DNA from: Eledone cirrhosa | Lineage: Eukaryota | Assembly (NCBI GenBank): GCA_964016885.1 | Contig: OZ024758.1 | Span: 16,182,001 to 16,246,000, forward strand | DNA: 64,000 bases | Reading direction: 5' to 3' | Part shown: one piece after another, positions 5,585 through 58,524 of the stretch | Layout: every line of letters begins with the position of its first letter | Position numbering within the stretch: the first letter of the stretch is position 1 | The notes under the pieces: generated by a model | What the model saw: only the letters and a program-made list of their open reading frames with translations | What the model was told of the DNA's origin: nothing | The model's database searches: none | Program-made: the position numbers and the translations under genes

Positions 5585-6134
5585 TGGTGGCTGCCAACTC
5601 GTTTTCGAGTACGGCCACTACTTTATATCCATGTAGGAGAACCCCTACCGATGCGCTGAACGAGTGTGACTTTTTAGTCCAGCCAGCGACTTGAAAACTC
5701 TGGTACAAACACTACACTTGTGACAATTATTGACACATAGTGCTGGGCCTATGGTACCATGTGACGACAAGTGCAGAGAGATCTCCAGATATAAAGCAAT
5801 GCCTGTGCCGTGAAGCTTTTATAGTGAGCAAAGGCACTGCACAAAGCCAGTCCCACTCTCTTAACGAAGATGATATTTACCAAAGAGAAGAACAAGTGAA
5901 CATCATTGGATACCATCAGGGTTGCAGGTGTTATATCAGAGTTTTCCTTCTCCTAGAATTCTGCCTTGACAAATGCTAAGGGGTCATCTCTCCCGGTGAT
6001 TTTGGATGGCCATTGACTCTTAAGAGCTCCTTTGCCCTTTGACAGGTTTTCTTTTTAGTCCTGCAGGATGTCCAAAGTCACCCTCCTCACCAAGAAACCT
6101 TGGTGGGGTTGCCAGTTTAGTCGCCAACGACCCG
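5585..6134 (-). mobile_element. RTE-LINE-derived non-autonomous retroelement in (TA)n
   Basis: Minus strand encodes a C2H2-like terminal motif ([15 protein letters not shown]) as at RTE ORF ends and finishes ...gttggcagccacca(TA)n. Copies at 60321 and 63705. Confidence 0.65.
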
Positions 6135-6187
6135 ATATATATATGTATATATATATACATATACATATATATATACATACATATACA

Positions 6188-6221
<34 letters not shown>

Positions 6222-6303
6222 CATATATATATACATACATATATATATATATTATATATATACATACGTATACATATATATATACATACATATACATATA
6301 TAT

Positions 6304-8258: not shown

Positions 8259-8333
<75 letters not shown>

Positions 8334-8336
<3 letters not shown>

Positions 8337-8472
8337 GGAGGTGAGTTTTATTGTAGTACAATAAAGCAATGCAGATATCGGATAAGTAGCACTCTACAGT
8401 TTGTAGGACTGGAGTATAAATAATATATAAGATCAAAAGATGGTTCTTTTAACCATCTTTTGATCTTATATA
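8334..8472 (-). mobile_element. Short fold-back insertion inside (TA)n
   Basis: Hairpin tatataagatcaaaagatggtt-ctttt-aaccatcttttgatcttatata plus a ~90-nt one-sided tail containing GAGTGCT (minus strand). Confidence 0.6.
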
Positions 8473-11290: not shown

Positions 11291-11294
<4 letters not shown>

Positions 11295-11482
11295 AACAAG
11301 TAAGACCCCGACGGTTGAGCTCAAGCCGTTTCGACGGCTAATTCTGGACTGGAATTAGCCGTCGAAACGGCTTGAGCTCAGCCGTCGGGGTCTTACTTGT
11401 TCCTATTACCCACTCTACTACCCTAAGTATTGAGTACTTTGGTGCGTTATGGTCCACCTGGTTCCTTACCACTTTTCCTTCG

Positions 11483-11484
<2 letters not shown>
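11291..11484 (+). mobile_element. PLE family A fold-back terminal fragment in (TA)n, with HHR 3' half
   Basis: Arms 11291-11344 / 11352-11405. Contains GAAA-cggct tgagctc agccg-TC-ggggtc and an ~80-nt tail shared with 40925, 49500 and 58214. Confidence 0.75.
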
Positions 11485-28685: not shown

Positions 28686-28965
28686 AAAACCACTGCCCAA
28701 TAATAATAAATCAAAATTAAATTAACATAAACAAACAAAATATGACAAAAAGAAAAATAGAAATATTTTAGAATAAATAGAACATTATATATATATATAT
28801 ATATATATATAATGTTGAGTATATGTTGGTTGTTTACCGACACCTCAGTATGCAGATTGGAGCACTCGACGAAGTACGCAGGTTGGTTTGTTTACTCCGG
28901 AGTAATGTAAAATAATTAAGTCAATTATGTAAAATTTGGCTTTGTTTATTATAAGTTATAGATGT

Positions 28966-29020
28966 ACTGCTATATATATTTCGGCGACAGCCATCATTGG
29001 CTGTGACCTCTTCAGGCAGT
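28966..29020 (-). ncRNA. Minimal type I hammerhead ribozyme, intact core
   Basis: Minus strand reads actgc-CTGAAGA-ggtcacagccaatgatggctgtcgcc-GAAA-tatata-TA-gcagt. Confidence 0.85.
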
Positions 29021-29205
29021 CCGAATTGGTGTGGGAGAGACAGGTACACATGTTGTAGAAGTGTGTTTTACTCCGTCTATACTCCGATATGTCCAGCTCC
29101 TGGTTGTGTTGTTATTTCTCTGAGGAACTGGAATCATATCGAAGTATTGACGAAGTAAAACACACTTCTACAACATGTGTACCTGTCTCTCCCACACCAA
29201 TTAGG

Positions 29206-29267
29206 ACTGCCTGAAGAGGTCACAGCCAATGATGGCTGTCACCGAAATGAAATATATATATAGCAGT
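29206..29267 (+). ncRNA. Hammerhead ribozyme, second arm copy (small duplication after GAAA)
   Basis: actgc-CTGAAGA-ggtcacagcc..ggctgtcacc-GAAA(tgaaa)tatatata-TA-gcagt. Confidence 0.7.
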
Positions 29268-29318
29268 ATATCTATAATTGATAATAAACGAAGCCAAATT
29301 TTACATAATTGACTTAAT

Positions 29319-29365
<47 letters not shown>

Positions 29366-30192: not shown

Positions 30193-30368
30193 ATCAGATA
30201 GGGTGTGGTTTAAACCGGGAGGGTCGTAACACACCAGAGTACTCGATATTTGGGGTAGTAGTGATTAATATGAAAAAGATCCAGGACCCCGACGGCTGAG
30301 CTCTGGACGTTTCGACAGCGTTCGAATCTAGCTGTCGAAACTGCCAGAGCTCAGCCGTTGGGGTCCTG
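30193..30368 (-). mobile_element. PLE family-A-related fold-back terminal fragment
   Basis: Arms 30282-30319 / 30331-30368. Minus strand has GAAA...gagctcagccg-TC-ggggtc and tail actactaccccaaatatcgagtactctggtg, homologous to family A. Confidence 0.7.
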
Positions 30369-40127: not shown

Positions 40128-40169
40128 TTTTCATTTTGAAATTTCAATATTTATAAAACAAACTTTATA

Positions 40170-40226
40170 TTTTATCTGATGAGGGGGTACCAAAACTTTG
40201 GTACCCTTGAAATATATATAATAGAA
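40170..40226 (+). ncRNA. Minimal type I hammerhead ribozyme
   Basis: ttttat-CTGATGA-gggggtacca aaactt tggtaccctt-GAAA-tatata-TA-atagaa. Confidence 0.8.
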
Positions 40227-40271
40227 TAAATATGGATTTATAAATATAGTTTCCATTTATTAATATCATCG

Positions 40272-40924: not shown

Positions 40925-40928
<4 letters not shown>

Positions 40929-41107
40929 AAAACGTATGACCCCGACGGCAGAGCTCAAGCCGTTTCGACGGCTATTTCTGGATTTCGAAACGGCTTGAGC
41001 TCTGCCGTCGGGGTCATACTTTTTCCTATTTCCCACTCTACTACCCTAAGTATTGAGTACTCTGGTGCGTTATGGTCCATCTGGTTCCTTACCACAATTC
41101 CTTTGTT
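40925..41107 (+). mobile_element. PLE family A fold-back terminal fragment in (TA)n
   Basis: Arms 40925-40967 / 40985-41028; same tail as the 11291 copy. Confidence 0.75.
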
Positions 41108-47980: not shown

Positions 47981-48069
47981 ATCTCTCGGACAGATTTTAG
48001 ACTCAATCTGTTTCGCCCTGAAAAAATTGTTTGTAACAGATAATCTGTAGGCTATCATCAGCGAGAGAT
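47981..48069 (-). ncRNA. Type I hammerhead ribozyme with full stem III and GUC site
   Basis: Minus strand reads atctctcg-CTGATGA-ta-gcct...gggc-GAAA-cagatt gagtctaa aatctg-TC-cgagagat (8-bp stem I). Confidence 0.75.
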
Positions 48070-48268
48070 AGATCAAATGAAACAAAACACCTCTAACAGC
48101 AATTTGAGGACCAAAGATATGTCCCTCGTGGTCTGCACGCTATAAACTGAGTGGGATAAGGCTATTATTTTTAGCATAACTACTCATACCACGTATAGCG
48201 TGCAGACCACGAGGGACATATCTTTGGTCCTCAAATTGCTGTTAGAGGTGTTTTGTTTCATTTGATCT

Positions 48269-48360
48269 ATTTCTCGCTGATGATAGCCTACAGATTATCT
48301 GTTACAAACACAATTTTTTTCAGGGCGAAACAGATTGAGTCTAAAATCTGTCCGAAAGAT
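48269..48360 (+). ncRNA. Hammerhead ribozyme, second arm copy
   Basis: atttctcg-CTGATGA-tagcct...gggc-GAAA-cagatt..aatctg-TC-cgaaagat. Confidence 0.65.
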
Positions 48361-48554
48361 GAAATGTTTTTGATACGGTCAGTATAAAATTAATATATCA
48401 TACTGTATGGTTAAGATTAAACTTTTAAAACATAAGTAATTTTAGACACGAGATTTACTGTGTTAATTTATACGTATATATTACTATATAATTGTTTATA
48501 TTGGCACGAGGCCAGCAATTACTCAGTACATTACTGGTACTTTATTTTATCGAA

Positions 48555-49624
48555 TGAGTAGTAACAAAACTGATACAAAATTAAAGGGGTTTTAACACAT
48601 CTGCTATAAGTAGTTAGTAAAACGTATTCGGCCTATTCTATCTTAAAATTACAGGGGTGGGGAAACTGATGCTACAGAGGCCCGATGGGCTGCATCGGGG
48701 TAGGCGAAAGGGGAAAAGCAGACGAGGAAGAAAATAGGGGATGGAAGGAAGTGATAGGATGAGACAGGGGGAAGAAGACAAAGAGGAAAAGAGATGCATC
48801 TACCGGTAGATGTATCTCTTTTCTTTTCCTCTTTGTCTTCTTCTTCCCCCTGTCTCATCCTATCACTTCCTTCCACCCCCTATTTTCTACCTCGTCTGCT
48901 TTTCCCCTTTCGCCTACACCGATGCAGCCCATCGGGCCTCTGTAGCATCAGTTTCCCCACCACTGTAATTTTAAGATAGAATAGGCCGAATACGTTTTAC
49001 TAACTACTTATAGCAGATGTGTTAAAACCCCTTTAATTTTGTATCAGTTTTGTTACTACTCAGTCTACAAGTTTTTTCTATTCTCAACTTATTAACCTGT
49101 AATTGTAAGGTAGCATTGTGATTTTTTTTATTCATTTCTCACTATCTAATTTTATATATTTTTTTATTTCTATTATCTTTTTATTTCTATTATCTTTTAT
49201 TGTCTCCTACTCTCATTCGATTTACCTATTCTATAACCTCCCTCCACCACTTCATACACTATCCTTAGAATCTGCTGTATACATATCACCTTCAACGCTT
49301 GACCGCTCTACTCACTCCCCTATTGTTCTACAGGCAAGTACAGCCACCCCTACCTCCCGCCAAATGCCATGATAAACTTATTTGTGTTTACAACAAATTT
49401 TAACCAATCCTCTTGACAACTACAATCTACTCATATAAGGAAGTACCCCCTTGACAAGTTCGGCTATTTATTCACCAGGCTAAACATTCTAATTTAGTCC
49501 AGAAATAGCCGTCGAACCGGCTTGAGCTCTGCCGTCGGGGTCATACTTTTTCTTACTACCCTAAGTATTGAGTACTCTGGTGCGTTATGGTCCATCTGGT
49601 TCCTTACCACAATTTCTTTGTTTT
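48555..49624 (+). mobile_element. Longer PLE family A 3' fragment with a spacerless ~250-bp 5' inversion
   Basis: Palindrome 48555-49062 centred on tctaccggtaga, then unique sequence, a degenerate HHR at ~49441-49548, and the family A tail into (TA)n. Confidence 0.7.
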
Positions 49625-56789: not shown

Positions 56790-56828
<39 letters not shown>

Positions 56829-56869
56829 ATATTAAATAAATGGAAACTATATTTATAAAACCATATTTA

Positions 56870-56926
56870 TTCTATTATATATATTTCAAGGGTAGCAAAA
56901 CTTTGGTACGCTTTCATCAGATAAAA
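56870..56926 (-). ncRNA. Minimal hammerhead ribozyme, paralog of 40170
   Basis: Minus strand reads ttttat-CTGATGA-aagcgtaccaaagttttgctaccctt-GAAA-tatata-TA-atagaa; the flanks also match 40138-40270. Confidence 0.7.
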
Positions 56927-57026
56927 TACAAAGTTTGTTTTAGAAATGTTGAAACTGTTGAGTGCTCTAAATCAGTTATAAACATTTATATTTGTTGAAT
57001 TACCAACAAATTGAATATCCATTTTG

Positions 57027-57912: not shown

Positions 57913-57986
57913 ATATCAATTATTGCTTTATAGAATATTTATAAGAATAAAGTAGCTTAATAGTTAACAAATCATATATATATATA

Positions 57987-58309
57987 TAGGAACAAGTAAG
58001 ACCCCTAATGATTCCTGGGTGTTGATCCATAGGCTAAGTCGGGCGTGTTGCTTGACTTTTGGTATCACGCGGTCTAGGATTTTTTTGCTGATTCTCCCTA
58101 TGTCGGACTTCGTTGGGTTTATAAGCCTGATAGATGGTTTACGGTCGAAATCCGATTTGTGGTCCTTCAGTGTGAAGTAGGGTGTCCGTGGGTCTAGGGG
58201 TTCGGTGGGTCTAGGGGTCTTACTTGTTCCTATTACCCACTCTATTACCCTAAGTATTGAGTACTTTGGTGCGTTATGGTCCACCTGGTTCCTTACCACA
58301 TTTCCTTCG

Positions 58310-58311
<2 letters not shown>
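57987..58311. mobile_element. PLE family A chimeric insertion: RT fragment between inverted termini, in (TA)n
   Basis: taggaacaagtaagacccc ... ggggtcttacttgttccta plus the family A tail. Confidence 0.75.
58011..58192 (-). pseudogene. Penelope-like retroelement reverse transcriptase fragment
   Basis: PRTPYFTLKDHKSDFDRKPSIRLINPTKSDIGRISKKILDRVIPKVK...LSLWINTQ matches the TLKDHK..RLINP.KS.IG.ISK.IL...W.NT pattern of PLE RT N-terminal motifs (recalled as Naiad-type; clade is inferred). Confidence 0.8.
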
Positions 58312-58343
<32 letters not shown>

Positions 58344-58347
<4 letters not shown>

Positions 58348-58524
58348 TGTTATACTTGGGGAGGGTCATATTTGTGTAATATTGCCAGAATTAATAACAG
58401 AACACACTCACTGTTTGGTTGGTTTTCTGTTATTAATTCTGGCAATATTACACAAATATGACCCTCCCCAAGTATAACAGTATTTGTTTCGACACACGAT
58501 TTCATATAAAAAGCCTCGCTAAAC
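58344..58524 (+). mobile_element. Fold-back insertion flanked by (TA)n
   Basis: Perfect 59-bp arms 58344-58402 / 58425-58483 plus a ~40-nt tail. Confidence 0.7.

Follow-up and report, generated by a model that had tools for sequence, protein, structure and literature searches.

Some arms of a Penelope-like element in Eledone cirrhosa begin at the predicted cleavage site of its putative hammerhead ribozyme

In the genome of Eledone cirrhosa, insertions of a Penelope-like element (PLE) family, here called family A, carry an excess of junctions at the single bond where the hammerhead ribozyme of the element is predicted to cut its own RNA. The case that drew attention to this bond lies in a window of 64,000 nucleotides (assembly GCA_964016885.1, contig OZ024758.1, positions 16,182,001 to 16,246,000), in which a piece of reverse transcriptase (RT) coding sequence is held between two inverted family A arms that both start at that bond. 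On the strength of the junctions, cleavage at GUC|GGGG probably takes place in vivo, and we consider it quite probable that two target-primed cDNAs ran off the ribozyme-cut RNA end before they jumped to another template or were joined.

The stretch 57987-58311 is one insertion within a (TA)n tract. Features are given in Table 1, and the element is numbered so that +1 directly follows the predicted hammerhead GUC. The arms are inverted and unequal (19 nt vs. 98 nt), and 57987-58005 on the minus strand and 58214-58232 on the plus strand are exact copies of the same 19-mer, for which a window-wide search with up to three mismatches returned 7 matches against 0.01 expected. In the comparison copy the GTC occupies 11384-11386 and +1 is 11387; both arms of the insertion start exactly there, as the initial annotation had proposed from copy 11384-11387. 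That annotation had also described an RT fragment of about 200 bp on the minus strand between inverted family A termini. The exact arm matches and an open minus-strand reading frame through 58012-58206 bear out the arrangement, and the size is refined: 58012-58206 derive from the element, with the linker 58006-58011 and the 7-nt duplication 58207-58213 excluded.

Table 1. Coordinates within the window of the insertion and of the copies used for comparison.
Feature	Positions	Strand	Remark
(TA)n target, left flank	57974..57986		sequence
Short arm, element +1..+19 (+1 = first base past predicted GUC)	57987..58005	-	
6-nt linker, absent from the element, at same-strand jump from +1 to +895	58006..58011	-	
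RT coding fragment, element +700..+895	58012..58206	-	N-terminal RT region, ahead of the FDIESYY motif
7-nt templated duplication of RT +710..+716, beside 5-nt ACCCC microhomology with the long arm	58207..58213	-	
Long arm, element +1..+98	58214..58311	+	96/98 identical to reference copy L111
(TA)n target, right flank	58312..58346		sequence
Comparison copy, common two-armed stub with arms that cross the cut site and enter loop II of the ribozyme	11291..11484		predicted scissile bond 11386|11387
Two-armed stub, sister subfamily	40925..41107		
Older one-armed copy with whole ribozyme (U3-A8 core)	49445..49622	+	

At the left junction the element continues differently past the arm, and there is an untemplated 6-nt linker and no microhomology. 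At the right junction, ACCCC is common to the long arm and to RT +705..+709 (a 5-nt microhomology), and 7 nt are duplicated. The caveat first attached to the locus, that 'tagggg' microhomology could explain the junctions, is thus borne out at the right one and fails at the left. Since the long-arm cDNA runs on into sense RT sequence at the right junction, its template was the first cDNA. The left junction alone is a same-strand template jump, and the right one is better read as a second cDNA annealed through microhomology. Another inverted two-armed stub (58345-58520) adjoins the right side of the insertion and shares its (TA)n. Among the short-read contigs of one outside study none spans 57987-58311, and the insertion is neither confirmed nor questioned there.

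The scissile bond was predicted from the topology of the ribozyme and is therefore independent of the junction data. Whole copies have a 5-bp stem I, a 37-39-nt loop II, GAAA, a 6-bp stem III and GUC; stem II consists of G10.1-C11.1, a small internal loop and then 6 bp. A UUGA(U/C)AA core, with U3-A8 and a variable N7, is present in 49 of 55 whole copies, while four show a C3-A8 mismatch and two are single mutants. The consulted part of PMC4209133 describes Cercyon PLEs in which U3-A8 replaces C3-G8. The constrained hammerhead fold of family A has an energy of -23.0 kcal/mol, 2.4 kcal/mol above the minimum-energy fold (-25.4 kcal/mol). Rfam returned no hammerhead at E<=10 on positions 5900-6260 of locus L103, and none at gathering score in the window, where the canonical C3-G8 motifs belonging to other families also went undetected; with no Rfam hit, the assignment to type I hammerheads is made on topology (conserved core, 3-8 pair, three stems, NUH). 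That the left arm might be the 5' strand of the ribozyme's own stem I was rejected, as stem I has 5 bp and lies at about -90. The four copies with the C3-A8 mismatch (L106, L090, L168, L173) form a CUGAGAA-core subfamily that offers a natural control: if unable to cut, it should lack the +1 peak.

The RT piece gave 1237 first-look candidates in the genome; of these, 40 were scored and 30, with this locus among them, were fetched. It is 97.5-99.5% identical to an ORF at the 29 other fetched loci, and at 13 of these family A, with the same orientation as the ORF, is contiguous with it about 700 nt upstream of the RT piece. The suggested tie of family A to an autonomous partner was thereby supported, the ribozyme 3' half and tail being contiguous with the ORF. 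Longer stretches contain pLTR-ORF-pLTR units of 3.5-3.7 kb, and these whole copies finish in the tail and (TA)n, so that the full-length element does carry the family A terminus. Partial tandems with the tail and an inverted 5' copy were found in L103, L109, L111 and L113, and the L111 unit measures 3639 nt. Judged by eye, the single ORF holds the RT motifs FDIESYY and YRDD and a C-terminal VIY..YIG region (GIY-YIG endonuclease). Hydra-clade motifs are present as DKT (HSDKTG), the CxCx5C linker (CNCPDRSSC), CxxC (CNLC) and CxH (CKH); RWR stands where the Hydra clade has RWK, and the unit of 3.5-3.7 kb compares with a general length below 3 kb in that clade. Pfam and PDB sequence searches with the element protein gave no significant match, 247 homologues were found at E<=1e-30 (among the 120 listed three were named, all hypothetical), and every translated copy holds frameshifts or stops. 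From these sequence features we identify family A as the pLTR and ORF leader of an autonomous, young PLE, and assign the parent element, by motifs and organisation, to the endonuclease-bearing (EN+) PLEs with Hydra-clade motifs.

To count junctions genome-wide, listed matches were sorted by hand; many rows are the two arms of one insertion, so that the rows in these counts are not all independent. Matches with A or T directly past a +1 end numbered 203, and among the first 100 listed 56 were junctions and 44 point mutants. At a matched CpG at -3 (134 matches) the corresponding figures among the first 100 listed were 9 and 91 (Fisher p = 6e-13; scaled, about 114 vs. 12 junctions). The excess at the GUC|GGGG nucleotide that the initial annotation had asked for is therefore present in these genome-wide counts. 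A scan from +7 to -5 left 70 of 100 listed rows once 30 chance hits, indels or point mutants had been removed; of these, 27 fell at +1, 15 at -1, 8 at +6, 8 at -5, 3 each at +7 and +2, 2 each at +3 and +5, and 1 each at +4 and -2. At +6 and -5 the partner arm provides microhomology.

An excess of this kind could also arise from sequence context, with no RNA cut, if the G4 run stalls RT or if CCCC/GGGG microhomology and collapse of palindromic stubs favour the site. Part of the data fits this. The right junction of the present insertion has its 5 nt of microhomology, microhomology hot spots among arm ends are found at -7/-20 and -45, and among 100 of the 130 head-to-head joints listed, 25 are blunt (CG; 19 exactly so and 6 with point changes) and 14 have GAC/GTC, all of which fit microhomology. 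Another 20 of the same 100 joints do not fit it: they have both arms at +1 plus 1-3 mostly A/T extra bases. Of the remainder, 5 hold a single G or C, 5 fall short by one or two bases, 13 have +1 as the end of one arm, and 18 lie elsewhere. A second occurrence of the context inside the element, TC|GGGGTC at +685, speaks against a hot spot as well, with junctions in 0 of 7 rows and all 7 matches point mutants (p = 0.004), a control that consists of those 7 rows and concerns long cDNAs. Two sources of the spacers were rejected: a single propagated master stub, as at least nine different 1-3-nt spacers occur at separate loci, and CpG decay as the origin of A/T spacers, with 13 A/T vs. 5 G/C parents and decay in about 2% of 6019 arms. 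Head-to-head +1 joints were also seen in the short-read contigs of the outside study.

Linkers and jumps bear on the same question. Insertions of at least 2 nt within -11..+6 numbered 26, and 24 of these are duplications or gains in the G run. The remaining two, in L192 (18 nt) and L208 (17 nt), sit exactly between GUC and GGGG with a whole ribozyme upstream, so that at these two loci both sides of the break are recorded. In a set of 75 arms selected for A/T-starting junctions, seven go from +1 into the ORF on the same strand, at +201, +218, +246, +311, +895 (this locus), +928 and +959, and one continues from +1 into the tail at +44. Most of the jumps into the ORF pass through A/T-rich linkers. 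By comparison, arms ending at -34..-46 include 1 real ORF jump among 121, against the 7 of 75 in the set chosen for A/T-starting +1 junctions. In L211 and L115 the cDNA arrives at +1 once more after its jump, which leaves short head-to-tail repeats with the cut site as their boundary, and L215 has the same anatomy as the present locus with a +1922..+2225 piece. Same-strand jumps with linkers are not palindromes, and linkers placed between GUC and GGGG also speak against a sequence-context hot spot, which we regard as very unlikely.

Some +1 ends have further peculiarities. Linkers of 17-55 nt in L208, L215, L216, L212 and L192 are A-rich on the sense strand with scattered G/U, and may be RT additions of a terminal-transferase-like kind or 3' tails on acceptor RNAs. 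Foreign palindromes occur at +1 ends in L217 (1477-1510) and L178 (1505-1552), where fold-back synthesis may have operated in some events, and the joints to other-repeat sequence in L220 (900-1556) and L221 (1516-1566) are possible jumps onto foreign RNA.

The family A 19-mer occurs 6019 times in the genome, and arm ends were read at the first 100 places on contig C1. There the 3' end is +19/20 in 54 arms and, in most of the rest, about +98-101, within (TA)n; these are two fixed 3' ends, +19/20 being a likely start of reverse transcription. Of the 5' ends, 60 of 100 lie between -34 and -45, where they form a cliff on TCAGT, a motif in loop II of the ribozyme (window 11340-11352 in the comparison copy). 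We take TCAGT at -41 to be an initiator-like motif, and from the sequence the end near -41 is likely the pLTR transcription start. An RNA that starts there is without the 5' half of the ribozyme, and so would be unable to cut itself there in cis. A splice acceptor was not favoured as the cause of the cliff, no common upstream exon appearing, and for the added G at -41 a cap origin and microhomology are indistinguishable. Nine of the 100 arms extend at least 158 nt, six end at +1 (from four insertions), one at -1 and none at -2..-6, with 13 in all over -1..-25. Cut-site ends are accordingly a minor route, 6 of 100 arms, beside the larger end near -41. Both arms of one insertion often carry the same variant (e.g. 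G000:C2:257727921-257728048), a sign that the two may derive from a single template RNA or source locus.

The larger cliff at -35..-45 (60/100) suggests that these elements record transcription start sites, and +1 might then be a second, minor start (C|G being pyrimidine-purine) from which cDNA runs off without a ribozyme. A cap templates extra G/C bases. Among the joints listed, A/T (13) exceeds G/C (5) as the single extra base. A start site also fails to account for the 3' end at -1 that L192 and L208 record, and its coincidence with the scissile bond would be due to chance. Although Penelope pLTRs contain an internal promoter according to the consulted part of PMC2377424, we hold a second start at +1 to be very improbable.

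We therefore return to run-off from a ribozyme-cut end, which for the present insertion would proceed as follows. Both nicked target strands would prime reverse transcription inside the RNA, at +19 and +98, and each cDNA would extend to +1, the 5' end that a read-through transcript with a whole ribozyme acquires when it cleaves itself. The +19 cDNA would gain 6 bases, jump to an RNA end at +895 and copy about 195 nt. The +98 cDNA would anneal to the first through ACCCC and slip once, giving the 7-nt duplication, and repair would join the two. The earlier proposal, that the 5' end of a self-cleaved RNA led to a template jump, is supported to this extent, with the jump confined to the left junction, cut-site ends in the minority and cleavage deduced from junctions. 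The bond could also be cut by a protein nuclease, of the host or the element, that recognises the structure. In the consulted part of PMC11167929 the ribozyme of an anole PLE cut only when protein was added, and PMC4209133, as far as consulted, describes PLE hammerheads as weak in vitro. The position of the cut is, however, the one that hammerhead chemistry predicts, and in the anole PLE core mutants abolished cleavage whereas endonuclease mutants did not (PMC11167929). A nuclease is in our view extremely improbable.

Whether the mark recurs in families without a G run was considered in the same way, and the indications are weak. Family E, which has no G run, has three sites; both arms of L153 are at the predicted site and one arm of L151 is within 3 nt of it. 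About 15 of 51 listed family G sites fit an arm within 1 nt of the predicted site, a count blurred by AT microhomology, and 6 of the 51 fit an 8-bp palindrome. A head-to-head search in family C gave one site, away from the predicted cut. The window holds more two-armed Penelope-type stubs of other families, at 47981-48460, 40150-40270, 56820-56940, 28870-29330, 30213-30365 and about 8330-8470, most with canonical hammerhead cores. On the minus strand of L028 (2022, 2488, 2953), tandem 466-bp units each contain a hammerhead and are retrozyme-like.

Comparisons with known systems refer to the consulted parts of the papers cited. Hydra-clade PLEs (PMC8557442) resemble the parent element in their C-terminal GIY-YIG-type endonuclease, DKT, the CxCx5C linker and CxxC/CxH around E/N, and in the pLTR hammerhead, partial tandems, inverted 5' copy and tail; they differ in RWK and a length below 3 kb, against RWR, 3.5-3.7 kb and a U3-A8 core here. 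Craig et al. 2021 (PMC8557442) call the function of hammerheads in EN+ PLEs unclear, and the part consulted contains no junction footprint. The hammerheads of Cervera and de la Pena 2014 (PMC4209133) are likewise type I, with short helix I, long helix II, U3-A8 and inverted motif pairs; the family A ribozyme differs from them in its 6-bp stem III with a 7-nt near-palindromic loop, which makes a monomer fold possible. Those authors propose cleavage and circularisation and state that in vivo evidence is absent, and in PMC3846280 head-to-head palindromes are attributed to self-priming on an antisense template.

In vitro, Poseidon-Ac (Frangieh et al. 2024, PMC11167929) also cuts and extends both target strands of an AT-rich target, and has two internal start sites bounding the tail just downstream of the hammerhead; unlike in Poseidon-Ac, the start sites here are about 80 nt apart. 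Uncleaved RNA is the dominant template of Poseidon-Ac, and in the present family the cut is the endpoint of a minority of genomic copies. For the anole PLE the same source reports cleavage to be dispensable in vitro and no RNA-seq read to begin or end at the site. R2 with its HDV-like ribozyme (PMC3774820, PMC8857657) serves as the working model for run-off, extra bases, and a jump or microhomology join: there too the cut sets the RNA 5' end and genomic 5' junctions mirror it, and the RT, on run-off, adds untemplated bases, uses microhomology to prime and can jump between templates. R2 differs in ribozyme and RT class and in that its cut is the normal 5' end. In family A, ends at the cut are the minor class next to those at a likely promoter start, and reverse transcription of both arms begins within the RNA. 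These data suggest that template jumping is shared by the Penelope and R2 RTs, and that a two-armed stub is produced when both strands of the target act as primers. The consulted parts of a 2026 retrozyme preprint, PMC7229834 and PMC2377424 report no such footprint, and a literature search that covered main texts and few subscription papers found no report of a PLE junction excess at the hammerhead bond.

The element itself is of a type already described; the novelty lies in a genomic record that can be counted and that likely results from in vivo cleavage and template jumping. About 6,000 exact arms amount to a nucleotide-resolution record of germline events that includes the two sides of the cut, added bases and template jumps, and family A provides a rough share of cut ends together with a recipe for counting the mark in any genome. 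More tentatively, ribozyme cleavage might be part of the normal Penelope cycle, with RT starting in the cut-off tail fragment, running off its 5'-OH and jumping onto the 3' end of the upstream RNA, although we think this rather doubtful. If true, seamless jumps would rebuild pLTR-ORF-pLTR-tail copies invisibly, linker-bearing or mis-aimed jumps would be the visible errors, and the hammerhead would set the boundary of the PLE tandem unit without a circular RNA.
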